Below are positions 13,866-31,445 of a stretch of DNA of 64,000 nt, piece by piece (position 1 is the stretch's first letter; the number at the start of each line of letters is the position of its first letter). Origin of the DNA: Botryllus schlosseri. Lineage: Eukaryota. The stretch covers positions 8,184,001-8,248,000 of the forward strand of contig CM119373.1 in NCBI GenBank assembly GCA_051294905.1, written 5' to 3'. The translations under genes and the position numbers were made by a program. The notes beneath the pieces were generated by a model. It made no database searches. It was given only the letters and a program-made list of their open reading frames with translations, and was not told where the DNA came from.

Positions 13866-14129
13866 ATGTCGGGGATTACAGCTTCTGATGTATACGACAT
13901 TATAGATAGGGTTCATTACAAGACTTGGAAAAGATTTGCTCGAGATCAACTTAAGTTAACAGACTTAGAAATTGCTGATTGTGAATACGCGGATCCCAAG
14001 AACTTAACTGAACAATGTTATCAAATGATACAAATATGGATTCGTAAAAATGGTCGATGTGCTACAATTGACAGACTCGATGAATTAGCTAATAGTTGTA
14101 TGTATGATTGTACTACCACACGGAATTAG
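13866..14129 (+). CDS. Death-domain-only protein (87 aa), Polinton cargo
   Basis: WKRFARDQLKLTDLEIADCEYADPKNLTEQCYQMIQIWIRKNGRCATIDRL fits the death-domain helix pattern (W..FAR.L.L....I...E......EQ.YQM...W....G..AT...L). Confidence 0.8.
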   Translation: MSGITASDVYDIIDRVHYKTWKRFARDQLKLTDLEIADCEYADPKNLTEQCYQMIQIWIRKNGRCATIDRLDELANSCMYDCTTTRN

Positions 14130-14267
14130 CTCGACCAGAAAAAAAATGAGAACAGTCCATTTGATTTACCGTTACCAGATTTGAATGTCTCAATGAGTTT
14201 ACCGTTGTGAATTAACGCGCCAAAAGTAGTTATTTAAACACCACTACGAGTGAGTGGGACATGAGAA

Positions 14268-14435
14268 ATGGATATACTTCTTAGTGAAGACTCCGATATC
14301 GCGTTCTACGTGATATTATGCTCTTGCATTAAAAGCTATTGCTGCATCAATATATACAAGAAGAAAAGAGATTCCGAGATTGCGGAAGCTTGCAACGATC
14401 TTAAAGCTGCTATCTGTAAAGTCTTCGGGCAATGA
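14268..14435 (+). CDS. Small Cys-rich hypothetical protein (55 aa)
   Basis: Manually found ATG-TGA ORF (MDILLSEDSDIAFYVILCSC...). Its stop overlaps the next ATG (ATGA), as in compact viral gene arrays. Confidence 0.4.
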   Translation: MDILLSEDSDIAFYVILCSCIKSYCCINIYKKKRDSEIAEACNDLKAAICKVFGQ

Positions 14436-14629
14436 AGCTAATATTCATACTATTCTTGCTGATGCTAAATTGGAAATCAACGGATGCTCCCGAATTGTTA
14501 TACCCTTTCAGCGTGAAATATCACGAAGAGGACTGCTTAGCTACTGACCAAGAAGCAATGAAATTGATTTTACGTTATATCGGAGCATATTCTTTGACTA
14601 ACTGTACGCATACCGAAATAAACTATTGA
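14432..14629 (+). CDS. Small hypothetical protein with signal-peptide-like N-terminus (65 aa)
   Basis: MKLIFILFLLMLNW hydrophobic leader and ATGA overlap with the upstream ORF. Confidence 0.45.
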   Translation: MKLIFILFLLMLNWKSTDAPELLYPFSVKYHEEDCLATDQEAMKLILRYIGAYSLTNCTHTEINY

Positions 14630-14857
14630 ATGATGATTTGTATTGTCTTGTCTCGACTTTGTTAGGTTGTGCTTTCAGTGCATACTCGTTACTGTCTCGT
14701 TGCGATATAGTGCTACTAGCTTCGTGGTTCTGACACAATTTTTTCTAACACTAAAGCTTTGAGAATAGAGAGGCACAAATGTAGGATGAGATTTATTATT
14801 CAGACCAAATAGGAATTTACCATTTTATTTTCCATTAACACATATTCAACCAGTAAT

Positions 14858-15443
14858 TTAAAATTGCTGAGAATTTTGCATCCACCCAGCAGGGCGATGT
14901 CCGTATTGAGATGGCGGTGGCGGCGGTACACCAGCATTCATTCCATAATAGGCGTTTTGCGGCGCTGCATTCATGCCATTAGTCGCGAAGTTCGCTTGAG
15001 GATGATCTTTCGATTGGATTTGTCCCGATTCTGCGATGAAGCGAGATGTTTCCTGCAGAATGAACGATAGCGGACCACGGTCAGGATCCTGTACCACGTT
15101 ACCTATATAAAAGATATAGTTTATTAGTACAGAATTTCATTAGATATTTACAATCTAACATACTTGGAGAATAAATTGTTAATTCGTCTGCTGGGTTAAT
15201 CTGCTGGAAACATTCAACACCATCACGAGTATAGGTCGCGACGAGACCCCCTTTGTGTGTGAAGACGGCTTTGTATCGTTGAATGGCACCCGAAGTACGA
15301 TGTAAGCGCAATTGATGATGATCAATTACATCATCATTTATGCTTTCAAGTCGTAGCTTCGATATGTTATTAAAAACATATACCTCTTTTTTCATTGTTG
15401 GACCACCAACAATTCTACTATCACCTCTTATTGCGATGCTCAT
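14858..15443 (-). CDS. Hypothetical two-exon protein with Pro/Gln/Gly-rich tail (predicted intron 15103-15163)
   Basis: ORFs 15099-15443 and 14858-15097 join in frame (..IYSP-S-NVVQDPD..) across a 61-nt GTATGT...TTTTATATAG intron. Confidence 0.6.
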
Positions 15444-15521
15444 ATTGATTCTAAATTAATATAGAAAACACAATATAGTTATTATTCAGTGAAAACATGA
15501 ATCCCCACACGAGAAAATAGA

Positions 15522-15875
15522 TTAAGAATGAGTCTTGTCATATCTTTTACTTAGTAAAGCACAACGACTATTCACTTGTTCATGCTCAACCCATACATTA
15601 TCACAATGACAGAGATTTTCGAATAGTTTTCCACACATATAGCATTTGGCTAAATTTTCGAAGCCGAGATGAAAATAACCACATTCTGCTAATTGATAGG
15701 CACTACTGTTGAAATTTTCTTTGTAAGGTTCGAACGAACGTAATCTACGTTCAAAATTCATATTGAAAAACACAGCTTCGTTCTGCTTCGCATTTCGATT
15801 ACAAATTTCATAAACGATATCACCGACTTCATTCTTCATTGCCTGATGTGCACCTAACGGCTTAATAGACACCAT
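15522..15875 (-). CDS. Single-BIR inhibitor-of-apoptosis protein (117 aa)
   Basis: RLRSF...LAECGYF...CYMC...EH......C provides the BIR Zn ligands. No RING domain. Confidence 0.88.
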   Translation of the reverse strand: MVSIKPLGAHQAMKNEVGDIVYEICNRNAKQNEAVFFNMNFERRLRSFEPYKENFNSSAYQLAECGYFHLGFENLAKCYMCGKLFENLCHCDNVWVEHEQVNSRCALLSKRYDKTHS

Positions 15876-15939
15876 CTCGTTATATTGAAGAACTGAAATA
15901 TTTATAAGAATAGGAGCTTTTATAGCTGTGTAGAATGCG

Positions 15940-16195
15940 ATGCTGTATTCTGATTGGAAGATTTTTCAACTTTGAAATGCTTGGTGGTCGTTTGATTTAA
16001 ATTTACAACATTCCAAAGTTCGAATATGTTGTTGGTTAAAAAATACATTGAAAGTATTGGTCTAGAACACGATACTGTATTCTGATTGGTAGATTTCCAA
16101 CTTTGAAATGATTGGTCGTACTTTGATTTAAATTTATGACATTCCAGAGTTTGAATATGTTGTTGGTTAAAAAATTCGTTGAAAGTATTGGTATG
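15940..16195. promoter_or_regulatory. Duplicated ~130-bp module with CCAAT boxes between divergent Polinton genes
   Basis: Two diverged direct copies beginning (GC/AC)TGTATTCTGATTGG, between the IAP (-) and the 16553 ORF (+). The promoter role is inferred. Confidence 0.45.
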
Positions 16196-16552
16196 AATTG
16201 TAACGAACGTTACTTTCGCGCACTTCCATTTATTTGAGAGTTCAATCTGAGTTTACTTTGTTTTAAGAAATTTGATAGAGGTTCGTTTTACCGTCTACTA
16301 TTCATTGCTTTTCAAACACTCAATGCATTGTTTGCTCTACCAACAAAGCGAAAACGACGGTTGGGAATGTCTTTTGTTCGAACGGGCTGTTACTATCTAT
16401 CAACAATTTCACATCCTAACGGTTAATGTTTGTCCGTTAGTGAGCGAACATTTTTCTTATGTGATTCTGGCGCGAAGCATTTTCGTATAAGATTAGCCGA
16501 ATGTGAAATGAGTTATCACTAAATCTGAGCGAATCAGTGAAAAGTATTCGAG

Positions 16553-18157
16553 ATGTCTTTGCAAATTGAAGTAATTATGGATGATGATAGTCAGCAGTTG
16601 CCAAGCAACCAATCAACCCGAGAAAGCAGTGACCATGCATTGAGTGTAGAAATTCCGAATCATATGAAATGTGATCAAATGGATAAAGATGATGAGGAAC
16701 TCGTCGCTATGGATCGATACTTTAGACCCATAACGAAGATCCCATCTGCTAAAGAAGTTCTTCTGAAATCTTTGAGCGAAGAAGAATTTCGCGATCGCGT
16801 TGTCATACGTCAGATATGTCCCGCATTCAAAACTGATTCATCCCCATCAAAACAACAGGCTAATGACATCGAGCTAATTAGCAACGAGACCCAACTTAAG
16901 GATCAATTGATACCTCTGAGTCAATCAACACCAGTAGGTGAACAACCCGTTTATGACGTTGAGAAAGTGACTAGCGATCCGACCCCTTCTGATACTGTCA
17001 ATCATCAAGCTTCGGGACAAGCAGTAGGCAATCCCGACACGGAAATGGATTTGTCTCTTGGTGCGGAGGCGATTGCCGAAAGTAGCGAGCCGCTAGGTGA
17101 AATTTCTCGTGATAGCAATGAGATCGCGAAGCAAATCCTACTGCGTCGTATAGAGAAGAGCACATCGCAAGTTACAGAGCAACCTACTTTTAGCGAGCTT
17201 GTCGCCGATTCCACTCATATCTCAAGTGGTTTTTCCGACTCTAATGTTGGTTCTATACCAAAGCCGAATATACTATCATCGCCAGATTCGTCAATAAGGA
17301 TCTTTCCTAGATATTGGATCCAGCATGATCGTCCGGTCATTAACCCACCGCAATGGCATATAGGTGACACTACCAAAGCAGAACAGAAGTATGATGAGAA
17401 GAATCGCGTATTCATGCGTTGGCTAGTTGGATTTAGAGAGGCGACAGAAATACATGAGGGTTATCTCATGTATAGATATCTGGAAGAAAATATTGTTGAT
17501 ATACAATATGGCGGGTTGAAACGGAGTCTCAATTTTCTTCGCGCCGCTCTGATTGTAGCTGTCGGTGAAAGCTTGACTCATGAAAAATTACTTGCTCCAC
17601 ACTTCTTTCTGGAAGGGGATTGCCTTTCTGGAAAGGAAGTATTGCACGAAATGCTTTTCGGTAGTGAAACAGCAAATTATTTGCTGCCGAGTTTGGAAAA
17701 TTTGAATGCTTTCAAATATTATGATGCTACAAAATGTGTTTCTGTGTTTCCCAACTGCGGAACGCTTTTCTTTGAAAATACTGCTTTACAGGAAACAATT
17801 TTGACTATACATCGTACAGCAGTGCAATGTGAATACGGGATTATTAATCCATCTTGCTGCTTCATGCTTTGTGATAAACAAAATGGCTCTGACTTGATGA
17901 CTGTCAAACATCCTATATCATTCAAGGCTAAAACGGTCATTGTAAAATTTGGAAGGGGTATTTACGCACCTTCTCTGGCCAGTTTCAACAAACATGCCCG
18001 TCGTGATGTTCTGTTTGATTTAATAAAGAGAACTAAAACTTCAAATATTAAAGAAGTTAATGGCTGTGTTGAGAAGGATCCCTTGGCTCAAGTACTGTAT
18101 CTCAGAGCATCTGGCTTCAGAAGGAGAAAGGAAAAAGCTGATAATGATACTCTTTGA
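16553..18157 (+). CDS. 534-aa protein: low-complexity N-terminus plus degenerate SF3 (NS1-like) helicase-like domain
   Basis: Long intact ORF. HFFLEGDCLSGKE resembles Walker A with T/S replaced by E. The downstream NLNAFKYYDATKCVSVF is spaced like the NS1 N..F.F.D / Walker B region but lacks the acidic residues. Confidence 0.55.
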   Translation: MSLQIEVIMDDDSQQLPSNQSTRESSDHALSVEIPNHMKCDQMDKDDEELVAMDRYFRPITKIPSAKEVLLKSLSEEEFRDRVVIRQICPAFKTDSSPSKQQANDIELISNETQLKDQLIPLSQSTPVGEQPVYDVEKVTSDPTPSDTVNHQASGQAVGNPDTEMDLSLGAEAIAESSEPLGEISRDSNEIAKQILLRRIEKSTSQVTEQPTFSELVADSTHISSGFSDSNVGSIPKPNILSSPDSSIRIFPRYWIQHDRPVINPPQWHIGDTTKAEQKYDEKNRVFMRWLVGFREATEIHEGYLMYRYLEENIVDIQYGGLKRSLNFLRAALIVAVGESLTHEKLLAPHFFLEGDCLSGKEVLHEMLFGSETANYLLPSLENLNAFKYYDATKCVSVFPNCGTLFFENTALQETILTIHRTAVQCEYGIINPSCCFMLCDKQNGSDLMTVKHPISFKAKTVIVKFGRGIYAPSLASFNKHARRDVLFDLIKRTKTSNIKEVNGCVEKDPLAQVLYLRASGFRRRKEKADNDTL

Positions 18158-18316
18158 ATAATATGTTTTGCTTGTACGATTGTTATTTGCATGAACGATC
18201 GTTACCAATTCGAATTTTGTTTGCACCTTGACATTATGACTGAAAACTTAGCTGATGTATATATTATTTGCATGAATGATTGTCACTAATTCGAATTTTG
18301 TTTGCAGCTTAACATT

Positions 18317-18727
18317 ATGAATGATAACTTAGCCGATATAGCTGCATCCACCACTCAGAGAGACATGACACAAATTAGCGATATGTCGGCCTTCTATCAA
18401 AGTCTAATGGATCCACAGGAACCTTCACGAAAGCGTCCTCGTCAAGATATTGGTTCTTACTTCGAACACATGATGGATGATCATTTGAAAATGCAAGCGA
18501 TGTGGAACCGCCTCATTTCGATGGAAGGATTCGAACAAGACTGGACAAAAAATTTTCTTGTCATTGCAAAAAACGTGATCAAAGATATCGAAAAACTGTT
18601 GTGTGACGATAAAACAGACTCGAATATTCGTGATACTGAGATTGCTAGATTGGACAGAATTAAGTTCATGTTTCTGTACGGTCTAAACCAATCTAAATTG
18701 CGCTTGAGATATAATTTCGTTTTCTAG
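18317..18727 (+). CDS. Hypothetical protein (136 aa) with NLS-like RKRPR
   Basis: ATG-initiated ORF directly upstream of pPolB. No recognisable domain. Confidence 0.55.
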   Translation: MNDNLADIAASTTQRDMTQISDMSAFYQSLMDPQEPSRKRPRQDIGSYFEHMMDDHLKMQAMWNRLISMEGFEQDWTKNFLVIAKNVIKDIEKLLCDDKTDSNIRDTEIARLDRIKFMFLYGLNQSKLRLRYNFVF

Positions 18728-18905
18728 TAAGTGAAATTGTGCTTTGTTTTACAGATATGGAGTAAATATAGGTAATACTTTCAATACTTTGTTGACACAC
18801 GACTTTACGACTGGATACCGTATCATAAAGCCCAAACGGTAAGCAAAACTGTGATTGAAATAAGCTTCTCAATTTCTAATGTTCTATGTTTTACAGATAG
18901 CATAA

Positions 18906-21900
18906 ATGGCTCTACGCAGGCGATATTTGGATCGAGATTGGACCGTCGATGAATCCTTGGGCTTTGAAGATGCCGCCGTCGAAGTAATTGAAGAGCACTA
19001 CGATTCGATCATTGACTCAACGTGGACGTCGAGAAATCGCGTGCGACATATAGTCAATATTCGGATGATTGAACGAGACCCCGCAGACATTCACGCGCGT
19101 ATCGCAAGTATATACCCGCAACGATTTAGACAATTTAAAATAAATTATGGCTTTGGGTATCTACTATATAATCGCGAGTCTGAGCGATATACGTATTTTC
19201 ACCCCCAATCATCGCAAGCTGTCCTCGATGTCCCAAGAACTATCATATCGCGTGAAGATTTTGATTCGTTTAGAAATGCAATTGATTTATCGGCCGGTTA
19301 CGATTATGCGAATCGAGTCAGACCGGATACAAAATTTGTTTGTTCGGAGGTGCTACACATTACTTTATTCCTGTATGAAATGGAAAGACCTTTACTTAGC
19401 GGGGGCGTTGTCTCAGAAGAAATGGAAAGATTATCCAAATGTAGATATATCAGTGCTTTTATTCGTAATCGTGAAGGTGTACCATATACAGATAATCTCT
19501 GTCTGTTTCGATGCGTCTCATTTAGATTAATTAAAAAACGTGACGAAAGTCATGTTTCTCAATTGACTACGCAATTTGAAAATCGTTACGGAATTTCAGT
19601 TGCAAATGGTATATCCTTCGACCAACTATCGAAAGTGGAAGCGTGTTTTAACGTTAGAATATTGCTTTACGAGAAACGTGAACAAACCACGGTCTTGCGT
19701 CGTACTTCCAATGCGTCTGGACTCACAATTCATATTCACATGCTCGAAAATCACTGTTCTTTAATTTTGAATATAGAGAATTATACGTCTACTTTTATGT
19801 GTGATTCGTGTAAAACATTCTTTACCTTGAAAAGTAGTTTAAAACGACATATTAAAAATCATTGTAATTCTGAGAAAAGGTATCGCTACGGTTCTGGTGT
19901 TTATCGTCCTAAAGCGACGGTGTTTGAAGATTTGGAAAATGAAGGTATATTTGTTAGTAAAGAAAAACGTTTTTACAAATTCAGAATTTGCTTTGACTTT
20001 GAGAGTCTCTTAGTAAAAGAAAATCTCAAGCCCGATACAGCCAAAGTAAAATTTACCAGTAAACATGTCCCGCTCTCGGTCTCACTGTGTGATAATGTCA
20101 CGAACGAAACAACTACATTTATTTCCAATGGCAACCCGCGTGATCTAATTAAAGAAATGGTCGATAAGCTTCATGAAATTCAAGAAATTGCGTCTTCGCA
20201 AATGCGTGCTATATATGACACCGAGTTGACCGCTCTTCGCGACTTGATTGAAGAACGTAAAGTGATTGATCCGATTAAAACGCGATCGTACCTGGAGTTG
20301 TTGTATCATCGCTTTGAAACGTGGTTAGATCAAATACCCGTAATCGGATTCAACTCGGCTCGCTACGATTTAAATCTGTGTAAAAAATATTTGATTGCTC
20401 TTTTGCGAGAGGAGAGCGGCTTTTTTGTATTGAAGCGAAACAGCAGTTACCTCACTATCTCCACAAATAAATTGAAATTTCTAGATATATCTCTATTCCT
20501 CGCTCCGGGATATAGCCTGGATGCGTATTTGAAAGTGTACGGTGATGGAGTAAACAATAAATTTTTCTTTCCATACGAATATATGACGCATATTGATAAA
20601 TTGAAAGAAACATCGCTACCGCCACACGATAGCTTTTATAGTAGTCTTCGCGGGCATAATATTACAGCTGAACAATACCAAGAATGCGTCGATACTTGGA
20701 AGCGTCTCGATATGAAAACAATGAGGGATTTTTTAAAATACTACAATGAATGTGATGTGGTCGGCTTTCTCGTCGCGGTAAATAACCACTTCGACTTTTA
20801 TAAAAAACTGGGGATTGACATGTTCAAAAATCACGTCAGCTTACCGAGTATAGCTAATCGACTTATGTTCGATGAAAGGTGGGAAATCGCTTTATTCAAT
20901 AAAGCCAATGCCGATCTCCATCACACTGTAACTAATAACTTAATCGGTGGATTGGCACAAATTACAAACCGGTATGCAATGGCAGACGAGACCAAAATTC
21001 GCATTTTGAAGTATGGAGACGCAGCCAAAGACGTGAAATCTATAGTAGGGTATGACAGCAACGCATTATACTTGCACGCCATTGATCTCAATATGCCAAC
21101 TGGATATGTCACCCGTTGGCTGTATGATGAAGTGAAACAGAAATTTCATAGAAAACAGACTTATCCGTCCATGATCGAACTCGAGTGGTTAACTTATCAA
21201 AGCATTGTTCGCGGTATTCCGATTCGTCACGCTTGGAACGGTCCGCAAGTGAAACTGGGAGCCCGTAGAATTAGCGTAGATGGATACTCAGCGGAGCGGA
21301 AGTTAATATTCAACATGGACGGATGTTGGTGGCACTCGTGTCCTTGTATATCTAATAATCAAAATATTAATCATAATCGACGCATTAAAACCGAAGAAAC
21401 CACCGCTTATTTTGAACGCCTAGGATATCAGGTCATTCGAGTGCGCGAATGTGAATGGAAAGCAATGAAGCGCGATCCAGACATTGCGCGCCTCGTTGCA
21501 CATTTACAAAGGAATGTGACAAAAGAATATTTACTCTCGCAAGAACAAATACTCGATCGAGTCGTTAACAATCGCTTTTTCGGTGCGATAGAATGCGACG
21601 CGCATTGCCCAGATCATTTGAAATCTAAGTTTGAAGAGTTACCGCCTTTCTTTAAGCACATCGAAATTAATGAATGTGATATCGGTCCGCATATGGCTCA
21701 ATACGCAAGGGAAAACAAAGTCAAGTTTCCAAAAAAAGCGCTCGCGTCCAGTTATTTCATCGAAAAGCAATTGGTTACTACCGACTTGTTGAGTTGGTAC
21801 TTGCGTCACGGAATGGTGGTCACACGTGTTTATCAATGTTTGGAATATGAACCTAAAAGACTATTTCGCAACTTCGTAGATCGCGTAACTACGCTACGGC

Positions 21901-22772
21901 GTAAAGGTGACGTCATTCCTAGAGACCATGCACTTGAAATGCAGGCATTAACCTTCAAGAATCTTGGAAATAGTGCTTTCGGAACCACTATACAAAATCC
22001 AGCCAAATATAAAAATCACAAATATGTGACTTGCGATGAAGTTCAAGCGCTCATCAAAAAACCGAATTTTATCGACGCTGATGAAATTGATTCGGACTTA
22101 ATTGAAGTAACCTCACGGCCCGATACGACTCAACTTGATCAACCCGTCATCGTAGGCTTCTTCATATTTAATCACAGTAAGCAACGGATGTTGTCGTTCA
22201 TGTATGACTTCCTCCACGTCTACATAAACGATTGTGATCAATTTCATCTTGAACTTGACACCGACAGCTGTTATTTAGCGATATCAGCTGATTCTATCTA
22301 CTCATTGATCATACCTTCAAAGCGTAAAGAGTTCTTTGAAGTTCATGATCAGTGGTTGGTTCAGCAGGCGTGCGTTAAGCATAAAACAGACTTCGAGAGG
22401 GACCCAGTCGCATTCAAAATCGATGAACCGTGCTGTGTCGCTGCTCATAATTACTCTAAGCGAACACCGGGTCTGTTTAAAGTAGAATGGAGTGGACGGG
22501 GGTTTGTTGGCCTCAATTCAAAAACCTACTATTGCTCGGGTGATACAGATAAATATTCATCGAAAGGTTTGAGTAAAACGGCCCGCAAAACTTTCAAAGA
22601 TTTCAAAGGTGTATTGCAAAACCGTTCTATATCAGGAGGGTATAACTCCGGATTCCGTTGCTTTCAGGGAGATATATATACATATCATCAATATCGTTCC
22701 GCTCTATCATACGGTTACTATAAAAGAATTGTATTGAGTGATGGGATTCATACTGTACCGCTTGCTTTGTAA
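18906..22772 (+). CDS. polB: Protein-primed DNA polymerase B with N-terminal vOTU-like region, C2H2 finger and inserted nuclease-like domain
   Basis: Exonuclease motifs CFDFES, GFNSARYD and YNECDV. Polymerase motifs YDSNALY, KNLGNSAFG and LDTDS. DNLCLFRC..NHCSLI (OTU-like dyad), CDSC..LKRH..H finger, and VDGY...MDGCWWHSC insert. Confidence 0.97.
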   Translation: MALRRRYLDRDWTVDESLGFEDAAVEVIEEHYDSIIDSTWTSRNRVRHIVNIRMIERDPADIHARIASIYPQRFRQFKINYGFGYLLYNRESERYTYFHPQSSQAVLDVPRTIISREDFDSFRNAIDLSAGYDYANRVRPDTKFVCSEVLHITLFLYEMERPLLSGGVVSEEMERLSKCRYISAFIRNREGVPYTDNLCLFRCVSFRLIKKRDESHVSQLTTQFENRYGISVANGISFDQLSKVEACFNVRILLYEKREQTTVLRRTSNASGLTIHIHMLENHCSLILNIENYTSTFMCDSCKTFFTLKSSLKRHIKNHCNSEKRYRYGSGVYRPKATVFEDLENEGIFVSKEKRFYKFRICFDFESLLVKENLKPDTAKVKFTSKHVPLSVSLCDNVTNETTTFISNGNPRDLIKEMVDKLHEIQEIASSQMRAIYDTELTALRDLIEERKVIDPIKTRSYLELLYHRFETWLDQIPVIGFNSARYDLNLCKKYLIALLREESGFFVLKRNSSYLTISTNKLKFLDISLFLAPGYSLDAYLKVYGDGVNNKFFFPYEYMTHIDKLKETSLPPHDSFYSSLRGHNITAEQYQECVDTWKRLDMKTMRDFLKYYNECDVVGFLVAVNNHFDFYKKLGIDMFKNHVSLPSIANRLMFDERWEIALFNKANADLHHTVTNNLIGGLAQITNRYAMADETKIRILKYGDAAKDVKSIVGYDSNALYLHAIDLNMPTGYVTRWLYDEVKQKFHRKQTYPSMIELEWLTYQSIVRGIPIRHAWNGPQVKLGARRISVDGYSAERKLIFNMDGCWWHSCPCISNNQNINHNRRIKTEETTAYFERLGYQVIRVRECEWKAMKRDPDIARLVAHLQRNVTKEYLLSQEQILDRVVNNRFFGAIECDAHCPDHLKSKFEELPPFFKHIEINECDIGPHMAQYARENKVKFPKKALASSYFIEKQLVTTDLLSWYLRHGMVVTRVYQCLEYEPKRLFRNFVDRVTTLRRKGDVIPRDHALEMQALTFKNLGNSAFGTTIQNPAKYKNHKYVTCDEVQALIKKPNFIDADEIDSDLIEVTSRPDTTQLDQPVIVGFFIFNHSKQRMLSFMYDFLHVYINDCDQFHLELDTDSCYLAISADSIYSLIIPSKRKEFFEVHDQWLVQQACVKHKTDFERDPVAFKIDEPCCVAAHNYSKRTPGLFKVEWSGRGFVGLNSKTYYCSGDTDKYSSKGLSKTARKTFKDFKGVLQNRSISGGYNSGFRCFQGDIYTYHQYRSALSYGYYKRIVLSDGIHTVPLAL

Positions 22773-22798: not shown

Positions 22799-23419
22799 AT
22801 GGAGCGTGCACGTGTCTTAAATTCTCCGTTCAGGATGATCATAGCTGGACCTTCGAGCTGCGGTAAGACATGTTTTGCCTATCGCCTTGTGCAAAATGCC
22901 AAGAAGATCATTGCGCCTTATCCAAGGAAGATTATTTGGCTGTACAATAATTATCAGCCGTTATACGATAAAATGAAGGGTGTGAAATTCCACCAAGGTC
23001 TAGGCGAGTTAGAACATTTACAGCAGGGTGGTAATGGACACACTCTGATAATACTAGACGACATGATGACGGAAGCACAACAAGCGAGGGACCTATTCAT
23101 ACGTCATTCCCATCATAATAATGTCTCAGTAATCCTATTAGTCCAGAACATATTTCACCGAGGTGGTGGTTTTCGTGACGTCACTCTCAGCGCTAGCTAT
23201 ATTGTGGTGTTTAAAAATCCACGTGACGTTTCACAAATACGTTACCTTTCACGGCAAATGTTCCCGGACAATCCTACTATGCTTACAGAAGCATACAAAA
23301 GAGCAACTCGCGAACCTTATTCATATATTGCCATTGATTTAACCCAAGAGACACCGGAAAAGTATCGACTTCGTACCAACATATTTCCGGACGAACGCAT
23401 GACTGTGTATTTGGAATAA
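22799..23419 (+). CDS. FtsK/A32-like DNA packaging ATPase
   Basis: Walker A GPSSCGKT, Walker B LIILDD, and RHSHH and VVFKNPRD motifs typical of Polinton ATPases. Confidence 0.95.
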   Translation: MERARVLNSPFRMIIAGPSSCGKTCFAYRLVQNAKKIIAPYPRKIIWLYNNYQPLYDKMKGVKFHQGLGELEHLQQGGNGHTLIILDDMMTEAQQARDLFIRHSHHNNVSVILLVQNIFHRGGGFRDVTLSASYIVVFKNPRDVSQIRYLSRQMFPDNPTMLTEAYKRATREPYSYIAIDLTQETPEKYRLRTNIFPDERMTVYLE

Positions 23420-23454
23420 ATAGCGCGCTGCTCGAACGATAATCATCATTCGTG

Positions 23455-23864: not shown

Positions 23865-24321
23865 GCTCTATTTTCCACCGCTACTAACAAAAGATGGATA
23901 CGAAAGGAAATTTGACAAACATATTGCCAAAATCAGAGACTCGGATTTGACTCGCGTGCAAAAACTAGCGCTTTACAAACACGGTATCAATGTCTTGAGA
24001 AACCTAAGAAAGAATGACGCGACGATAAAAGCGCTCGCAAACGCTTCGTCACTTGACGATAAAAACGCGTCGCCGCCCGTCATTAAAGCAGACGCAGCGC
24101 GCGCGCCACCATCTGATGACACAAACGCGACGCCGGGGCCCCCGCACGCGTTAAATTGGAGCGTTACTAAACAGGAGGGAGATACTCCAAAGAAGAAAAA
24201 ACCCAAGAAAAAAGCAAAGAAAAAGGTCGACCTCAAACCTCCGCTTAACTGGAAAGAACTCGATACTCCACGTCAACAAAAGCCCAATCAACGCTACTTT
24301 GGGAAGCTATGGACAAACTAG
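23857..24321 (+). CDS. Lys-rich hypothetical Polinton protein (154 aa)
   Basis: ATG ORF overlapping both neighbours, with a poly-Lys tract. Position between the ATPase block and integrase. Confidence 0.7.
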   Translation: MRELYFPPLLTKDGYERKFDKHIAKIRDSDLTRVQKLALYKHGINVLRNLRKNDATIKALANASSLDDKNASPPVIKADAARAPPSDDTNATPGPPHALNWSVTKQEGDTPKKKKPKKKAKKKVDLKPPLNWKELDTPRQQKPNQRYFGKLWTN

Positions 24322-25313
24322 ACTACTTCGATCCCAAAAAACCCAATTCTTATAGGGGTGCTTACCTACAGAAAGACAGCGAGTGGTTGAAGGGACAAGA
24401 TAGTTATACCTATCACTTTCCCATTCGAAAAAGATTTAAACGTCGTCAAGTTGTTGTGTCAGGGATCGGAGCGCAGTTTCAAAGCGATTTAATCGACGTA
24501 CAGTCTATTTCAAAATACAATCGTGGGTTTAGATATATCGTTCTTATTATTGATGTTTTCTCCAAGTATGTGTGGATGATTCCGATTAAAAATAAATCGA
24601 GTGACAACATGATATCTGCTTTCAAAAAAGTTTTCAAAGAGAGCCTTCCATTAGTGCTACAGACAGACAGAGGTACAGAATACTCGAGTCGAGCTTTTCA
24701 GAATTTTCTCAGAAAAAACAAGGTGCGGTACTTTTACACGAAAAGCGAATTGAAATCTTCGATTGCGGAAAGGGCTATCCGTAGTTTCCGTCAAATCTTC
24801 TACCGCTATTTCACGAAAAATAACACCAGCAATTATATCGATGTGCTAGATGATATGGTCTATTCGTACAATCACACCAGACACCGCTCGTTAGGGATCC
24901 CTCCTAGTGAAGTTAATAGACATAATCAAGAAAGCATTTGGCAAAAAATGTATGGATTTCGCGACTCCAAACTACCCACTTTAGCGGTCGGGACCCCTGT
25001 ACGCATCTCGAAAATTCGCAATCTGTTTGAGAAGTCTAGTCGACCCAACTGGCAACCCGAGATATTTTACATTGCCAAAGCCATGAAAGGAGATCCGCCA
25101 ACGTATCGCTTACGTGATTACAATAACGAAATAATTGACGGACAATTTTACAGACAAGAAATTCAACCCGTTACTGAACCGCAAAAATGGCAAGTCGAAA
25201 AGATTATAAAGAGGCGACGGCGTGGTAAACGCAGTCAGTTTTTAGTGAAGTGGTTGAATTATGGACCGGAATTCAATACCTGGGTCGATCAAAAAGATAT
25301 CGTCGAACCGTAA
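24309..25313 (+). CDS. Retroviral-like (rve) integrase with C-terminal chromodomain
   Basis: QSDLID, LQTDRGTEY and SIAERAIRS give the DDE triad. WQVEKIIKRR..FLVKWLNYGPEFNTWV is a chromodomain. Confidence 0.96.
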   Translation: MDKLDYFDPKKPNSYRGAYLQKDSEWLKGQDSYTYHFPIRKRFKRRQVVVSGIGAQFQSDLIDVQSISKYNRGFRYIVLIIDVFSKYVWMIPIKNKSSDNMISAFKKVFKESLPLVLQTDRGTEYSSRAFQNFLRKNKVRYFYTKSELKSSIAERAIRSFRQIFYRYFTKNNTSNYIDVLDDMVYSYNHTRHRSLGIPPSEVNRHNQESIWQKMYGFRDSKLPTLAVGTPVRISKIRNLFEKSSRPNWQPEIFYIAKAMKGDPPTYRLRDYNNEIIDGQFYRQEIQPVTEPQKWQVEKIIKRRRRGKRSQFLVKWLNYGPEFNTWVDQKDIVEP

Positions 25314-25473
25314 CTTTTATCAATTCATTGCTCAAGTTATAATTATACTGCTCATCGTGAGTTTTTCGCTGTATAATTTGAGTGTCGTGCAAGACAACAA
25401 AGAGCTTTGGGTGTCGCTGTTATCATCGTGTGTGGGATATATGTTACCGGCTCCAAAGATACCCAAACTATGA
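25261..25473 (+). CDS. Small two-TM membrane protein (true start uncertain)
   Basis: QVIIILLIVSFSLYNL...ELWVSLLSSCVGYMLPAP has two hydrophobic segments. The stop overlaps the penton ATG. Confidence 0.7.
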   Translation: MDRNSIPGSIKKISSNRNFYQFIAQVIIILLIVSFSLYNLSVVQDNKELWVSLLSSCVGYMLPAPKIPKL

Positions 25474-26300
25474 GTTATATTACGTTATTTTCCAATGCCT
25501 CCATGGACAGGTTTCCACAAAATACAGCTGCGGTTTACACCAACGAACTAGACACCCCCAGAAATGTAGAAAGAAGCGAAGTCGCGTTGACTGAGATTGG
25601 CTTCCCAACCGATTTTAACGAACGGATCCCAATCACAAATAGCTACTACGGTTTCGACATTATGGGTCCCAGTGAAGTCACAAGAAGATTGAAGTTCAAA
25701 ATTGGTGAATATGAATCTGTATATGACATGTTTAAATCGTTGGAGAGCATTAATCCCGATGTGAAAGTCAAGTGTTTTCCTGAAAGTGATAGCCTGACGG
25801 TTTCGATTCCACACAAAAACATTGCAGCTAGTGCAAGACCGGGAGAGGATACGCGATATCGAATCGACACCAGAGAGTACGATTATACTGGGACACTTGA
25901 GCATCTAGAATTGGCGGTAGTTACCCTTACTCTCCTACGTTTCATATTACCGAAGAATAGAGCAGACCTATCCGCATACTTTTTTACTGACAAGACAATA
26001 CATCTCAATTTTGATGTACGACCCTTGTCGAAAATCGATTTCGTATACGTTCATTGCGACATCATTGAACCACAAGAGTCTAGCGGTTCACTACAGCGTT
26101 TATTACGAGTTGTAAAAGTCGAAGGAGATAAGAAGGTGTTTTCAAAATATTACGTAAAACCTTTCTTTCTTCCGCTAAGTATAAATAGATTGGAACGGGT
26201 AAAAATTTCCTTGCTGGATCACAAAGGGGGTGAAATTCCGTTTCGAAGCGCTCCATCGAGCGCTGTACTTCAATTCCGAAAGCGCGGTATCGCACTATGA
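25470..26300 (+). CDS. Minor capsid (penton-like) protein 1
   Basis: YITLFSNASMDRFPQN...EVALTEI at the N-terminus and VYVHCDIIEPQ..LLRVV..FLPL near the C-terminus. Confidence 0.88.
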   Translation: MSYITLFSNASMDRFPQNTAAVYTNELDTPRNVERSEVALTEIGFPTDFNERIPITNSYYGFDIMGPSEVTRRLKFKIGEYESVYDMFKSLESINPDVKVKCFPESDSLTVSIPHKNIAASARPGEDTRYRIDTREYDYTGTLEHLELAVVTLTLLRFILPKNRADLSAYFFTDKTIHLNFDVRPLSKIDFVYVHCDIIEPQESSGSLQRLLRVVKVEGDKKVFSKYYVKPFFLPLSINRLERVKISLLDHKGGEIPFRSAPSSAVLQFRKRGIAL

Positions 26301-27046
26301 AATACATTCACATTAGCAGTTTGGAATCAGATTTTGTTCTCGAGCTAGCACGACCGATTGCTGGAAAATACGAACTGGGGCTAGCGGAGTTCTCGATTCG
26401 CAACGAGTTCCAACCTACTTTACCTGCTTTCGACGCTCTGTTATGGCAATTTCAGGATGAGAAAACATCGCCTCTGATTCAAGTGGGAAGTACCAATCAT
26501 TATTATTACCCCAAGGGTAATTATTATGACTTCAAAAGTTTGATTGATAGAATCAATCGCACGCAGGACCAAGTATATATTAACCAGCTAGGAAGTTCTA
26601 CTGGTATGTTAGTCATTCCACCTTACAAATCGGGTGCGTTTCCTAATTTCCTGAAGAATCCAACCAGAGTCAGAAATCCGGTTTTCGTGTATGGAAAGCT
26701 TAGGAAGAAAAAGCTGCTAGGAGGGAATTATTTAACTTCAGAGATCACTCTGAGGGATTCCATTACGCCTATCACCAATTTATTAATTTATACCGATCTC
26801 ATTCGACCGCAATCAGTCGGCGACACGAAAGCTCCGCTATTACGAAACATCCCCATTACGAGTAGTGTCAATGAATATCAACATCATATATTCGAAAAAA
26901 TATACTTTTTCCCTATGATTACGGAATACGCTCGTCGAATTCAGATTAGTATCAAAGACGATAAAGGTACGGGTATAAATCTGAAGGGGTCCATGATTGA
27001 TATCACACTTGCTTTACGTCATCATGAGAGCACATTACTGTTGTGA
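26297..27046 (+). CDS. Minor capsid (penton-like) protein 2
   Basis: YELGLAEFS and LLIYTDLIRPQSVGDTKAPLLRNIP..IQISIKD are the same motif set as the preceding ORF. Confidence 0.88.
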   Translation: MKYIHISSLESDFVLELARPIAGKYELGLAEFSIRNEFQPTLPAFDALLWQFQDEKTSPLIQVGSTNHYYYPKGNYYDFKSLIDRINRTQDQVYINQLGSSTGMLVIPPYKSGAFPNFLKNPTRVRNPVFVYGKLRKKKLLGGNYLTSEITLRDSITPITNLLIYTDLIRPQSVGDTKAPLLRNIPITSSVNEYQHHIFEKIYFFPMITEYARRIQISIKDDKGTGINLKGSMIDITLALRHHESTLLL

Positions 27047-27392: not shown

Positions 27393-27442
27393 ATAGGACT
27401 CTCCCTACTTTATTTTTTCATTAGCTAGCAGACTCGCGAAAG

Positions 27443-28721
27443 ATGACGGAGCTAATTCACGCGAAATCTGCCGAAGGCGTACATCCTAGCTTGGATCTTT
27501 TTCAACTCCCACCTACCCAAACAAGCGTGGAGAAGAAACGGATCATTAAGATTCCACCTGTGTCGGACAACGCAAGCGTAATTATTTACCGCTATGAAGG
27601 ATGTGACGATTTTATTGATTTAAGCGAATCCTATTTTTTTATTTCGCTTGAAACTATTGAAAGGCGATGCGAATCTAGCTGCCACGGACAGCATCGGAGT
27701 TGTGAATAACATTCTTGATTCTCTAATTTCTCAACTTCACATCAAAGTCGGGAACCATACCCTGAAACAAGACGTGAAGCTACAATGTTATTCGGCCTAC
27801 TTACACTATCTGTTCACACCTCACGACGTGCAAGAGACAACACTTCTTACACAAGGATGGTTCAAGGACACAGAGAAGCAATTGGATGATTCGGCCCCAG
27901 GCGACGGTGCGGCTAACAAAGGTCATAAGGCGAGAAGTTTGCCTTATGCCGGGAGCAAAGTCGTCGAAATTCGCGGTAAAATACATCATGGGTTGTGTTT
28001 GCAAGACCGCTATATTTTGGACGAGGTTCCGTTAGAGTTCGAATTGACATTGAATCCGAAAAGTTTCTTTCTGTTTGGAGCCGCTACCAGCAATTTCAAA
28101 ATCATCAAAAAAGAATTGCACCTATGTGGAGTGCGGGTAACCGAAGATGTAAAATCTGCCTTGATGGTAGACGCACCGGCTCGGTATCCCTTTATGGACA
28201 TGAAGCTGCTGACTCGAACTTTTGCGGCTAACACCACTCAAATCGATATTGGTAATCTGTATTCGGGAACCCTGCCGACACGTTTGATTATAGCCATGGT
28301 GAAAACTGAGGCATTCCAAGGAGCACTCGATAAGAACCCATATAATTTTATTCATAATAAAATGAATCGGGTTGAATTGAAAGTAAATGGTTTCCTTATG
28401 CCGGAGGGTGGCTACGAACTTGATTTTGAAAACAATCATTATTCCGAGGCCTACCTAAATCTCATTCAATCTATGGGTGCCATCGAACGACAAAAAGGCT
28501 TGATTTCCCCTTCCGAGTTCGCAAATGGATACACGCTTCTAGCATATAATTTGCGAGGTGACGATTTAGATGACTGCTTCGAGCTGCAGAAAAGTGGAAC
28601 GATCAGTCTTCGAATCACCTTTCCTGCGGCAGGTGTTGAGAGCGAAACGACACTGCTGTGCTTTATGGAATTTCAAAAAATACTGGAAATAAGCCAAGCT
28701 CGCACGGTGACCGTGATATGA
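27443..28721 (+). pseudogene. Double-jelly-roll major capsid protein, one frameshift near 27650
   Basis: LDLFQLPPTQTSVE..IDLSESY in ORF 27443-27709 continues as KLLKGD..NNILDSLISQ..HHGLCLQDRYIL..LPTRLIIAMV..NPYNF in ORF 27648-28721. Confidence 0.92.
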
Positions 28722-29179
28722 ACGGACAAGAAATAGATGAAATATTGTATAGTTACCATGCTACGAAACAACACTATCTAGGGAATTTCCCTATTGATCA
28801 ACTCCCTCAGCGCCCAAAACCTCCTTATTCAATTGTGATCAATTATGATGAAAGTCACAAGGAAGGTAGTCACTGGGTTTGCATATATGCTGATCAATAT
28901 GAAACCCATTTTCACGATAGTCTGGGTATCACTCCATTCAGGATTGAGATTGCGAGTTTCCTTGATCCCGAAAATTATACTAGCTCAATAAAACCATTAC
29001 AGCATGAAAGGTCAGACGCTTGTGGAGCTCATGCAATTGCATATATCGTCAAACGCTCTACTGGTATGAGCACACTACAGTATTTGGATCACTTCGGTGA
29101 TGATCGAAAAGAGAACGACGATATCGTAGTGGACTTCGTTAGAATCTTGAAATGGGAGCAACTAGTTTCACCATCATAG
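28718..29179 (+). CDS. Adenain-like cysteine maturation protease
   Basis: GSHWVCIY, HDSLG and LQHERSDACG supply the His/Asp/Gln/Cys residues. ATG overlaps the MCP stop. Confidence 0.93.
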   Translation: MNGQEIDEILYSYHATKQHYLGNFPIDQLPQRPKPPYSIVINYDESHKEGSHWVCIYADQYETHFHDSLGITPFRIEIASFLDPENYTSSIKPLQHERSDACGAHAIAYIVKRSTGMSTLQYLDHFGDDRKENDDIVVDFVRILKWEQLVSPS

Positions 29180-29469
29180 AATACTTTGGAGATGATGAGA
29201 AGGCCTACATGAAAGTCCAAGGAAAAATTATTGTCATGAATGCAAATCGTATTCATAGAATTTCTTTCGAGCCGTTTCACATACGCATTTACCCGCATGA
29301 TAACGAAGTTACAATTTTCCGCGGGTCTGATTGGATACCAGTGCGTTTTCCTAAAAATTGTATGTATATAGATGTGTTGTCGAAGCATAGAATTATTCGT
29401 CGTAACCGCGGTGAACTTGTCGTTTTTCGTAAACTAAAATTATGGGAATTTTTGAGAAATCGCTTTTAA
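29152..29469 (+). CDS. Hypothetical protein
   Basis: ATG ORF overlapping the protease end, followed immediately by AATAAA. Confidence 0.55.
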   Translation: MGATSFTIIEYFGDDEKAYMKVQGKIIVMNANRIHRISFEPFHIRIYPHDNEVTIFRGSDWIPVRFPKNCMYIDVLSKHRIIRRNRGELVVFRKLKLWEFLRNRF

Positions 29470-29533
29470 TAAATTCGTGTGTATTCATCGGAGTATATAA
29501 GTGGTTATTGCTCGGGATCTAGTCAGTGTCATC

Positions 29534-30274
29534 ATGAATGCGCTTATAGTATCGATGTGTTATCGCGGAAAGCCGCACCATGTCGAAAATGAAGGAACGT
29601 TACAAGACATTCAGATTATGACAGATATCTTAGTACAGAAATTCAAATTCAAGACTGAAGATATCAAAGTGTTGCGTGAAGAGCAAGCCACTCTTGGAAA
29701 TTTTTCCAGAGAGCTTCAAACGATGGCCGATAGTAGCGCCAAGATAAACTTCATATATTTCGTCGGTCACGGCTTTTCATGTCCAAATAACACAAAAGAA
29801 AATGATCCTGAAGCTCGCGATTCCGGATTTGTATTTTATGATAGGCATCTACTCGATGATGATATGTGTGAGCTATTAAAAAGCTTTCGTAAAGATACAA
29901 AAAACCTACTCATGTTTGCGCAGTGTTATAGTGGTAACTCTGCCGATTTGAAATTTCATTTACGAGAAGACGCTGCTTCGCAAGCACTCAAGCGCAAACG
30001 AGACGTAAAATCCAAAACTGTTCTCATAAGTGCAGTTAGTGACGATCAAATCAGTTGGTGTTTTGAAGACGGTAGTGCTTTTGCAAAGAATTTCAGAACC
30101 GTCATACGTGAACACGACGAAATCAAATTCTTCGATCTTATGTGTAAATTGCGACAACTAGATAAGAGACAAAAGTGTTCGATATCATCAAGCTTCAAAT
30201 TGGATGAACACGATCATCTCATTCGAAAAAGAAGTTTCAGTTGGATAAAATCTCAATGGAAGAAATCGAAATAA
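29534..30274 (+). CDS. Metacaspase-like cysteine protease (peptidase C14, no prodomain; 246 aa)
   Basis: Colinear with type I metacaspase motifs: ALIVSMCYRG, GTLQD, FIYFVGHG (His), LLDDDM, MFAQCYSG (Cys), LISAVSDDQIS and QKCSISSS. Confidence 0.85.
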   Translation: MNALIVSMCYRGKPHHVENEGTLQDIQIMTDILVQKFKFKTEDIKVLREEQATLGNFSRELQTMADSSAKINFIYFVGHGFSCPNNTKENDPEARDSGFVFYDRHLLDDDMCELLKSFRKDTKNLLMFAQCYSGNSADLKFHLREDAASQALKRKRDVKSKTVLISAVSDDQISWCFEDGSAFAKNFRTVIREHDEIKFFDLMCKLRQLDKRQKCSISSSFKLDEHDHLIRKRSFSWIKSQWKKSK

Positions 30275-30359
30275 TAACTATCGTTGCAACCGCGCTGTTA
30301 TTTCTGGAATTCTTATTATATACGCTATTTTGCTGTGGAGAAGAATGTGAACGTAAATC

Positions 30360-30701
30360 ATGACTATGGCTCGCATTTGTATTGGTCCCCTACGCTTGAG
30401 TAGTAATGGAGATCGTAGGTATTATGAAAAAACGATTGTATTACCGAAAGTGAGATCTATCACTATTCCTTTCTCATGTGAAATAATGTATCGTACCAAT
30501 AAGATCGTAGTGAAGAAACTGCATGTTCCTCACTACGGTAAGATTGAATCTCCGACAATCACTGTCTGCAAAGACAAACATTACTGTTTACCGCGTACCT
30601 GTCCTATTCTTATAGAATTTAAAGGGAATGCGAGCGTTGTAAAAAATATAATCGTATTCGAAGCGTTACACAACGCGCGATTTTATGATGCTTGTTATTA
30701 G
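30360..30701 (+). CDS. Hypothetical beta-rich protein (113 aa)
   Basis: ATG ORF followed by AATAAA at ~30716. No recognisable domain. Confidence 0.55.
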   Translation: MTMARICIGPLRLSSNGDRRYYEKTIVLPKVRSITIPFSCEIMYRTNKIVVKKLHVPHYGKIESPTITVCKDKHYCLPRTCPILIEFKGNASVVKNIIVFEALHNARFYDACY

Positions 30702-30785
30702 TTTGATATGTCTGTAATAAAATCGCAAAACAACTACGGCTCCTCATTCGTGTTCTAGTCAGATACAGCATCAATAGAAAAGTCG

Positions 30786-30856
30786 TGGAGACTACGGGAA
30801 TTGAACCCGTATCTTCTATTTGCAAGACAGATACTCTACCATTGAGCTAAGTCCCC
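30786..30856 (-). tRNA. tRNA-Ala (UGC)
   Basis: Full cloverleaf: GGGGACT/AGTCTCC acceptor with G3:U70, D arm GCTC/GAGT, anticodon loop CT-TGC-AA, T arm ACGGG-TTCAATT-CCCGT, discriminator A, and TTTT 4 nt downstream. Confidence 0.9.
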
Positions 30857-30965
30857 ATTCAGACGAATAACAACGCAACCAGACGTTGATTTTTATTATT
30901 TATTACAAGAACAATACGGAATGTATAATGCAATTCCACGCTACTCGCGGTGGATTAAAACAACA

Positions 30966-31445
30966 CTATTTTTCTTGCTGGGTGACTTGCGTATCTTCCA
31001 TTGCATGTCTACGGGTATATTGAGTAGCTAGTTGGAAATAACGTTCCTTATTTTTTAAATACATTTCCGCACTCTCTTGATCCATCGGATCATAAGGGTT
31101 TGGTGAAGCGAGCAATGAACGTATTGATATCAGTAGAGTGGACGTTGTCATCGCTGGTGACCATTCCTTCTGTAAAATATCGACACATATGGTACCTTTA
31201 CAGCTTACGTTAGGATGGAATATCCGTGTTTCAAATCGCATTTTAGGAGGCTTGAATGGATACTCGGTAGAATATTCGATTGATAATCTGAACACACCAC
31301 CTTCGTAGGGCGTTCCGTTTGGTCCTTGGATCGTTGCCCACCAACTATACATATTCTTTTCATCGAATGGTCCTGCTCGGATCCCTTCGTAAGCATTCTG
31401 CTTAAATTTTGCTTGTTCATATATCAAACGCTTCAAAGCACGCAT
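30966..31445 (-). CDS. E2 ubiquitin-conjugating enzyme (UBE2D/E-like, intronless, 159 aa)
   Basis: GPNGTPYEGGVF, YPFKPPK, IFHPNV..GTICVDILQKEWSPA. The HPN motif and catalytic Cys are intact. Confidence 0.95.
   Translation of the reverse strand: MRALKRLIYEQAKFKQNAYEGIRAGPFDEKNMYSWWATIQGPNGTPYEGGVFRLSIEYSTEYPFKPPKMRFETRIFHPNVSCKGTICVDILQKEWSPAMTTSTLLISIRSLLASPNPYDPMDQESAEMYLKNKERYFQLATQYTRRHAMEDTQVTQQEK

Follow-up and report, generated by a model that had tools for sequence, protein, structure and literature searches.

General features of the element

The DNA analysed here (the window) is a 64,000-nt stretch of the Botryllus schlosseri genome, positions 8,184,001-8,248,000 of the forward strand of contig CM119373.1 in assembly GCA_051294905.1. 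It contains a Polinton that spans positions 2913-32823, has the ends (AGT)2//(ACT)2 and measures 19.5 kb once a nested insert is subtracted. Major features are summarized in Table 1. The element is bounded by 214-bp terminal inverted repeats (TIRs) of 95% identity and by a target site duplication (TSD) of 6 bp, identical on both sides, and these ends, together with an rve integrase, an A32 packaging ATPase and the motifs of a protein-primed B-family DNA polymerase (PolB), are those of a Polinton/Maverick. Its two arms carry open reading frames (ORFs) for a death-domain (DD) protein, a BIR protein, a metacaspase-fold cysteine protease of the C14 type and a ubiquitin-conjugating enzyme (E2).

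A first-pass annotation, made from the sequence alone, had recognized these four ORFs and placed them with a tRNA in the arms of a single Polinton. This picture holds: all four lie where it put them and score above the Pfam gathering cut-offs (Death, BIR, Peptidase_C14, UQ_con), the tRNA gene next to them folds into a full cloverleaf, and the PolB, ATPase, integrase and putative penton, capsid and protease genes lie between the two arms. The element reaches beyond the positions given there, 13866..31445. Candidate ends near 13778 and 33223 were dropped, as they show neither an inverted match nor a TSD. The nested insert has short inverted ends (3412-3483 and 13738-13814), the right one of which is a high-copy repeat; in other copies of the Polinton, the TIR directly adjoins the DD region.

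Table 1. Positions of the Polinton, its nested insert and its genes in the window
Feature	Position	Strand	Basis or remark
Left 6-bp TSD	2907..2912	.	Same letters as 32824-32829
Left TIR, (AGT)2 end	2913..3125	+	214 bp, 94.9% identical to right TIR
Nested TA-flanked insert, ~10.4 kb	about 3412..13802	.	Foreign to the Polinton family; missing from other copies
DD-only protein, 87 aa	13866..14129	+	Pfam Death, E 6e-11
Small conserved ORF, about 55 aa, accompanies DD gene	14265..14435	+	Open in 10/10 copies with the arm
orf114, intron-bearing, trans-spliced; accompanies BIR gene	14858..15443	-	Splice joint; leader at 15456
Single-BIR protein, 117 aa, no RING	15522..15875	-	Pfam BIR, E 1.3e-10
534-aa ORF, conserved C-terminal half	16553..18157	+	38-49% to families B and C
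136-aa ORF (orf136), trans-spliced, expressed	18317..18727	+	Leader at 18306; RNA reads
Protein-primed PolB, 1288 aa, Beta-like	18906..22772	+	Three PolB motifs in order
A32-like packaging ATPase	22799..23419	+	Pfam Pox_A32, E 2.5e-10
rve integrase with chromodomain	24309..25313	+	Pfam rve 4e-12, Chromo 4e-11
Two paralogous ORFs (276 and 249 aa), putative minor capsid/penton	25470..27046	+	Position; 26-27% mutual match
Putative major capsid gene, broken into two ORFs in the window copy	27443..28721	+	Weak double jelly-roll (DJR)-like Pfam match
Putative adenain-like maturation protease	28718..29179	+	Weak match to African swine fever virus (ASFV) S273R, E 0.024; His/Asp/Gln-Cys aligned
Metacaspase-fold cysteine protease, 246 aa	29534..30274	+	Pfam Peptidase_C14, E 8e-13
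tRNA-Ala(TGC)	30785..30856	-	ARAGORN cloverleaf, G3:U70, T-run downstream
UBE2D-like E2, 159 aa, trans-spliced, expressed	30966..31445	-	Pfam UQ_con, E 4e-47
Right TIR, (ACT)2 end	32610..32823	-	Inverted match to left TIR
Right 6-bp TSD	32824..32829	.	Same letters as 2907-2912

Distribution and selection of the cargo genes

Copies and host homologues were sought in a 495-Mb genome (G000). It contains at least 12 further copies of this family (family A) that are 93-99% identical, all 12 of which were retrieved, plus a rearranged locus on C22. A perfect 6-bp TSD flanks eight of the nine other two-ended copies (9/10 counting the window copy) and every TSD is different, so the family has moved recently and repeatedly. 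The cargo is not confined to one copy and is present in the 12 others wherever the arm survives. Where the arm is kept, the frame is open in 10/10 copies for the DD, 9/10 for the BIR, 11/12 for the protease and 10/12 for the E2, and the tRNA is present in 12/12. The capsid, ATPase and maturation-block protease frames are open in 9, 10 and 12 of 12, and the latter two core genes are under purifying selection.

Within the family, variants were scored only in copies with an open frame of the window length (10-12 sequences per gene). The ratio of non-synonymous to synonymous polymorphism (pN/pS) is 0.42 for the DD, 0.33 for the BIR, 0.19 for the protease and 0.21 for the E2; the binomial p values for falling below neutrality (0.03, 1e-3, 3e-5 and 7e-6, respectively) are approximate, the copies being related. 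Pooled variants common to at least two copies comprise 10 non-synonymous and 19 synonymous changes (pN/pS 0.13). Between families, dN/dS is 0.13 for the E2 and 0.35 and 0.07 for the DD, compared with values of 0.11 in the maturation protease and 0.08 in PolB; the protease (pN/pS 0.26) and the BIR (0.283/0.839) have saturated synonymous sites in these comparisons. By these estimates the cargo is constrained between families about as strongly as the core genes, and the data support the view that it forms a stable, selected part of a mobile lineage.

A recent accidental capture of host genes that now drift neutrally is scarcely credible. Host look-alikes of the DD and the E2 do exist, but they are only 61-66% identical (61% for the closest DD, about 66% for the closest E2), and the synonymous sites of the DD are near saturation against the host. 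All four genes have open frames and a pN/pS under 1, the search of G000 yielded no host counterpart of the protease, and the selection tests refute neutral drift. The observations that the first-pass annotation had named as refuting it, namely cargo in this copy alone, near-identity to adjacent host loci and neutral evolution, are all contradicted.

The C22 locus (C22:307516-324717) is a family-A copy in which the right arm has been swapped for an inverted left arm, leaving a DD at both ends and a truncated protease. It has an apparent 6-bp TSD and could be an intermediate towards palindromic satellites. Of the sequence words in window 29000-32000, 71-80% recur in sequencing runs X11 and X13-X15, which are labelled as three other organisms; the species could be related, the samples mixed or the element horizontally spread.

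The death domain and its host relative

The best PDB match of the Polinton DD is the DD of FADD. Within the host genome, the N-terminal DD of a Death+C14 protein (G000:C8:2400837-2402501) shares 61% identity with it across 75-76 aa; this protein is one of five tandem intronless Death+Peptidase_C14 proteins at C8:2346001-2404000 that combine an N-terminal DD with a caspase domain at the C-terminus. The identity of Polinton DDs is 60-68% with this one paralogue and 35-49% with the other four, and the caspase domain of the paralogue is 46.5% identical to that of its nearest neighbour. A tree groups the Polinton DDs with the same paralogue at 82/96 support, rising to 92/99 once P0157 is added. P0157 is the one outside DD-only homologue recovered by word-indexed searches, which are insensitive and which returned no outside homologue of the DD of the host DD-caspase. 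Assuming a root among the host paralogues, the simplest reading of this tree is that the DD was likely captured from the host.

A search with the DD gave 113 matches in G000, mostly at 53-61% identity and many as inverted pairs about 10 kb apart. Those examined belong to Polinton families B and C, which are sisters of family A, or to a palindromic element without core genes, and five lie in the long C8 ORFs. Homologues of the small ORF at 14265..14435 adjoin the DD in family B and in one satellite.

Known dominant-negative decoys are built as a caspase pro-domain standing alone, and by analogy the Polinton DD is likely a decoy derived from the pro-domain of the host DD-caspase. Such pro-domain-only decoys include the CARD-only proteins COP, INCA and ICEBERG, the poxviral pyrin-only proteins and the viral FLIPs. 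The likeness lies in an isolated death-fold domain with a close relative in a host caspase or adaptor, namely its recruitment domain. Here, by comparison, the domain is a true death domain, its parent sits in a five-gene DD-caspase cluster, the carrier is a 20-kb Polinton and inhibition is predicted. A complex prediction for the Polinton DD with the DD of the host caspase scored 0.01, which speaks neither for nor against binding. The DD points to a specific and testable host target, the C8 cluster, which is itself unusual in its caspase architecture; its catalytic motifs vary and one paralogue is apparently inactive. DD-caspases go unmentioned in the accessible part of PMC2779465.

The metacaspase-fold protease

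All eight PDB sequence matches of the C14 protease are metacaspases or a bacterial homologue, and none is a caspase or MALT1. Metacaspases are also the top Foldseek matches of its predicted structure (pLDDT, the predicted local distance difference test, 64). The His-Cys dyad is kept in 12/12 other copies, and the aspartates at what we take to be the Ca2+ positions are conserved. At the position two residues ahead of the Cys, an Asp stands in 114 of the 125 relatives aligned, and we take it to form the acidic S1 pocket; this residue is Ala in the window and Ala or Ser in the clade. Because of this replacement, the specificity of the protease is likely altered, and because the S1-pocket Asp is missing we name the enzyme metacaspase-fold and not a canonical metacaspase. 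To our knowledge, animals normally lack proteases of the metacaspase type, and the element places a metacaspase-fold enzyme in an animal genome.

In G000, the protease gave 16 matches, every one of which belongs to Polinton family A or C. A host homologue was not among them, with the proviso that an intron-rich or very distant gene could escape the search. A search of 5.8 billion proteins yielded just four close relatives (P0001-P0004, 51-88% identity, on contigs of 1-3 kb), and a full HMMER scan yielded several further partial members, followed by generic metacaspases. Viral and metagenome contigs were scanned as well, and their 248 and 259 pattern matches included no confirmed relative. In a quick tree with 72 rows (the 70 best long matches and two Polinton proteins), the Polinton enzymes fall into a long-branched clade and no donor emerges.

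The closest named viral structural relatives are metacaspases of Nucleocytoviricota, and 76 metacaspase loci lie in giant-virus contigs. These facts would suit a provirophage-like element that wakes on co-infection by a large DNA virus, took its metacaspase from the kin of that virus and uses it to kill the cell or to cut helper proteins. We regard such a life as very improbable. The giant-virus enzymes are just 23-31% identical to the Polinton protease, with the donor left open by the tree; moreover, the element has its own polymerase, its transcripts undergo nuclear splicing and trans-splicing, and no helper virus was seen.

Compared with metacaspases of the C14B group from plants, fungi and Nucleocytoviricota (PDB 6w8s, 9n3e and 4f6o; giant-virus entries in BFVD; the accessible part of PMC10583209), the Polinton protease is alike in its fold, its His-Cys dyad and several conserved aspartates. 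It differs in having Ala or Ser for Asp, in the lack of a pro-domain and in its location in an animal genome. In families A and C, its gene comes after those of the capsid, the protease and orf105 and has their orientation, a placement that suggests late expression.

BIR protein, E2 and tRNA

The first-pass annotation was right to call the BIR protein RING-less, its 117-aa ORF holding a BIR and nothing else. The zinc site, C-x2-C-x16-H-x6-C, keeps its ligands in 10/10 other copies. PDB matches comprise the BIRs of NAIP, DIAP1 and XIAP, with survivin among them, and the ORF stops about 11 aa past the last zinc ligand, without a survivin-type C-terminal helix. The accompanying orf114 has intronless homologues of 161-181 aa in families B and C. 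For an orf114 homologue there was no match in the Atlas and no fold match above Z 3.1 with a model of pLDDT 45.

The E2 has a UBC fold with its best matches in UBE2D, and the HPN motif and catalytic Cys are kept in 12/12 other copies. The closest non-Polinton E2s are about 20 intronless paralogues at C1:34121103-34492664, which are 65-66% identical for the five compared; no Polinton genes were seen around the eight stretches of this cluster that were examined. The tRNA-Ala(TGC) gene is the single ARAGORN match in the 64 kb and has homologues in families B and C.

RNA evidence

Three raw RNA runs from three studies were mapped on 13810-32400, giving 213, 48 and 63 reads from 3-13% of each run. 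The reads are not assignable to a single copy, and the depth is too low to call any gene silent. Most fall on orf114, orf136 and the E2; orf136 has reads in all three runs, and the E2 has nearly none in run X24. In run X20, one non-templated leader is joined at AG acceptors just upstream of the start codons of these three genes, at 15456 (14 reads), 18306 (7 reads) and 31507 (9 reads), respectively. Among chordates, trans-splicing is a tunicate trait, which points to a tunicate as the likely host. The leader fits the 'Chordata 1' spliced-leader consensus in Table 1 of PMC3795323, as far as that source was available. In orf114, two runs show the removal of an in-frame GT-AG intron at 15163-15103(-), with 2 and 5 reads; 10/10 other copies retain the splice sites, and the spliced frame runs on into the downstream ORF. 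An initial view of orf114 as frameshifted relative to other copies was dropped, the RNA showing an in-frame intron.

Three genes of the element thus undergo host-type RNA processing, and the addition of the leader shows that the element is transcribed in the nucleus as host-type mRNAs. RNA-seq had been proposed in the first-pass annotation as a check on the cargo; in these runs, the DD has few reads and the BIR, protease and capsid genes have essentially none. A 30-nt piece inside the protease gene was not accepted as a transcript start. No run that contains the stretch is catalogued as RNA; coverage of the element by one further run, X1, is even, and this run was left out of the expression evidence.

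Sister families and core-less relatives

Two sister families carry overlapping cargo. Family B (PolB 67% identical; four loci examined) has the DD, E2, a Bcl-2 gene and tRNA-Ala/Pro, and two fuller copies add a BIR (55%) and tRNA-Leu, i.e., three tRNAs. Family C (PolB 53-65%; two loci) has the DD, the protease (66%) and three BIR ORFs, one of which encodes three BIRs and a hydrophobic tail; it has no E2. The C14 protease is absent from all four family-B loci examined, which nevertheless retain the same virion module. This argues that virion assembly does not require the enzyme. Because the sister families share overlapping, constrained cargo, the arm genes are an old modular pool consisting mostly of death and ubiquitin regulators.

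The patchy spread across families and the differing expression patterns could also mean that there is no kit at all, and that independently captured genes serve separate ends: the E2 in general turnover of proteins, the BIR in a survivin-like role at chromosomes or in the cell cycle, the protease in processing of proteins of the element itself and the tRNA in translation. The position of the protease within the morphogenesis block and the presence of survivin among the PDB matches of the BIR would fit, as would the statement, in the accessible part of PMC10583209, that giant-virus caspases may mature viral proteins. On balance we find this account decidedly unlikely. Death or ubiquitin regulators (DD, BIR, Bcl-2, E2 and C14 protease) make up nearly all the recognizable accessory proteins of the three families, the DD follows the pro-domain of a caspase, the BIR lacks the C-terminal helix of survivin, and family B, which has no such protease, builds an identical virion module.

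At C1:28786001-28806000 and C3:12476001-12496000 lie palindromic elements that have the ends of a Polinton and lack its core genes. Both of the two examined keep either BIR+orf114 or DD+orf57 as mirrored pairs, and this retention suggests that the paired genes act together. It also favours a different setting for the cargo, namely an integrated, transposon-like life in which the genes shield germ or stem cells from the death that integrase breaks or free linear DNA would bring about, and in which the element and its capsid-less satellites would thereby spread within the genome. The 113 DD matches with their many inverted pairs, the near absence of capsid-gene reads and the similar IAP (inhibitor of apoptosis)+E2 pair of a retroelement-like family described below point the same way. 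We consider this unlikely, though worth keeping in view. The capsid, ATPase and maturation protease frames are open in most copies, the latter two under purifying selection, and such open, selected core genes point to particle formation in the recent past. An integrated life, furthermore, would alter the setting and leave the anti-death activity unchanged.

A second Bcl-2 gene, about 70% identical to that of family B, lies inverted some 3 kb beyond the right TIR at two family-B insertions (C1:20438433-20438960 and C11:2532523-2532959).

Proposed role of the cargo

We think it probable that the element is a copy of a recently mobile adintovirus-like Polinton whose selected arm genes blunt the caspase-based death of the host cell, with the DD as a decoy. 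The DD would occupy adaptor or oligomer sites of the host DD-caspase, bringing no protease with it. The RING-less BIR would bind caspases or IAP antagonists stoichiometrically, the UBE2D-type E2 would boost ubiquitin transfer by host or co-resident BIR-RING ligases, and the tRNA would aid translation. In two families the gene of the metacaspase-fold protease stands immediately behind the capsid and protease genes in the same orientation, and the third family lacks it; the enzyme is therefore likely a late accessory protease of altered specificity. The recurrence of the theme in families B and C supports the anti-death reading, as do the pairing of a 3xBIR-RING gene with an E2 in an unrelated retroelement-like family and the anti-apoptotic IAP and Bcl2 genes known from adintoviruses (PMC8502044).

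Several observations weigh against this interpretation. Selection shows that the genes are used, not for which use. Gene sets vary among the sister families, hence the cargo is a gene pool and not a fixed four-part machine. The key DD branch in the tree is not starred, and an approximately unbiased (AU) test keeps the tree with the host DDs together (p 0.28); as the test does not reject this grouping, the direction of DD capture rests on the assumed root. The BIR lacks aromatic residues that are conserved in aligned cellular BIRs and keeps the acidic positions, all of which we assume to line the peptide groove; because some of the aromatic groove residues are lost, its binding to caspases is uncertain. 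In the RNA runs, the DD bin has a depth of 0.17-0.27 and the bin with most of the BIR 0, the protease has a single 30-nt piece (29958-29987), and the capsid has no reads save a trace in one bin. Finally, nine reads splice 131 nt (31170-31300) from the E2, with loss of the catalytic Cys and a shift of frame. This splice may be cryptic or regulatory; the absence of its acceptor in 3/12 copies suggests a cryptic site.

The first-pass annotation had gone further and suggested that cell death may be suppressed early and lysis triggered late. In its present form, this would be a two-phase switch. Early on, host-derived decoys (the caspase-derived DD, the BIR and the E2, with Bcl-2 in a sister family) would be produced through the trans-splicing machinery of the host, and late on the metacaspase-fold protease, foreign to animals, altered in specificity and immune to host IAPs, would open the cell. 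We hold this switch to be doubtful, and its late-lysis half is an improbable guess. If true, an endogenous virus would here deliver the first example of a metacaspase-type executioner at work in an animal.

Whether animal Polintons are infectious viruses or transposons is still debated, and a virus at odds with its host would carry cargo of just this kind, aimed at a host death pathway and under selection across three families. All four cargo genes are small and intact, and each can be assayed singly.

Comparison with known viruses and Polintons

The first-pass annotation held the cargo to be more typical of large DNA viruses than of Polintons. This was overstated, as IAP, Bcl2 and gasdermin-like genes are already on record for adintoviruses (PMC8502044; Starrett et al. 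2021). Accessory arms are likewise known in Polintons from the accessible part of Barreat and Katzourakis 2021 (PMC8097293). As far as these two sources go, the B. schlosseri element resembles adintoviruses and Polinton-Mavericks in its (AGT)2//(ACT)2 TIRs, 6-bp TSD and size of 19-20 kb, in its PolB, rve integrase, packaging ATPase and putative protease and capsid genes, and in the accessory regions on both flanks. It also has an E2, a metacaspase-fold protease and a DD-only gene that can be traced to the pro-domain of a host caspase, and none of the three was found for such elements in the literature searched. In the accessible part of PMC8097293, vertebrate Mavericks that are intact are said to have no introns, whereas three genes here undergo trans-splicing and a spliceosomal intron interrupts one. 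The literature searched, which did not extend to subscription papers, mentions neither a metacaspase nor an E2 in a Polinton. The word 'caspase' is absent from the text and text supplement of PMC8502044, the figure genome maps of which may label such genes, and from the texts of PMC10748475 and 10.64898/2026.06.19.733378.

Among large DNA viruses, baculoviruses have IAPs that carry a RING, and the E2 of ASFV is I215L. The Polinton shares with these viruses and with ascoviruses the possession of viral death or ubiquitin regulators and a virus-encoded C14 protease. Their genomes are at least 100 kb, and baculovirus IAPs have the RING that the Polinton BIR lacks. The ascovirus executioner enzyme is described as a caspase in the accessible part of PMC10583209, whereas the Polinton protease fits metacaspases best.

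Core genes

Three motifs at residues 716, 1021 and 1118 are taken to be those of PolB. By eye, PolB also has an OTU-like Cys/His at 196/281, with no Pfam OTU match; a PolB with an OTU domain at its N-terminus is a Beta adintovirus trait (Starrett 2021). It has no PF03175 match at E up to 1, and neither profiles nor the PDB gave a match for the polymerase domain; a PolB divergent from PF03175 is what marks the Beta adintoviruses (Starrett 2021). The putative pentons have no profile match. The DJR-like Pfam matches of the putative major capsid gene (E 0.0046 and 0.14) are both below the cut-off, and its frame is open (425 aa) in 9/12 other copies. The ORFs at 23455 and 27024 are placed like GasderminX and Cupiennin of the Beta adintovirus and are candidates for these by position. 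Nothing in Pfam or PHROG matched the 534-aa ORF.

Surrounding sequence and other carriers

A dispersed retroelement-like family (C7:24853001-24893000 and C3:29426001-29466000) has gag-like ORFs and an RT/RNaseH (reverse transcriptase/ribonuclease H) ORF with a Tpt1/KptA domain fused to it; ahead of these lie about 15 accessory ORFs, among them a 3xBIR-RING IAP, an E2 (55% identical to that of the Polinton) and a leucine-rich repeat (LRR) protein. It resembles a very large retroelement with anti-apoptotic cargo, and about 20 similar IAP+E2 pairs occur in the genome.

In the window, positions 1-38065 show four levels of nesting. A Pao/BEL retroelement is split by an element with 21-mer arrays (about 1335-35487); this element has long arrays and an apparent 9-bp TSD and is itself split by the Polinton, which is in turn split by the TA-flanked insert. 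The ORFs at 41697-44602, 54304-56160 and 58128-59835 are, judged by eye, presumably DNA-transposon-like (THAP/P-like, hAT/SCAND3-like and YqaJ-/Harbinger-like, respectively) and unrelated to the Polinton.

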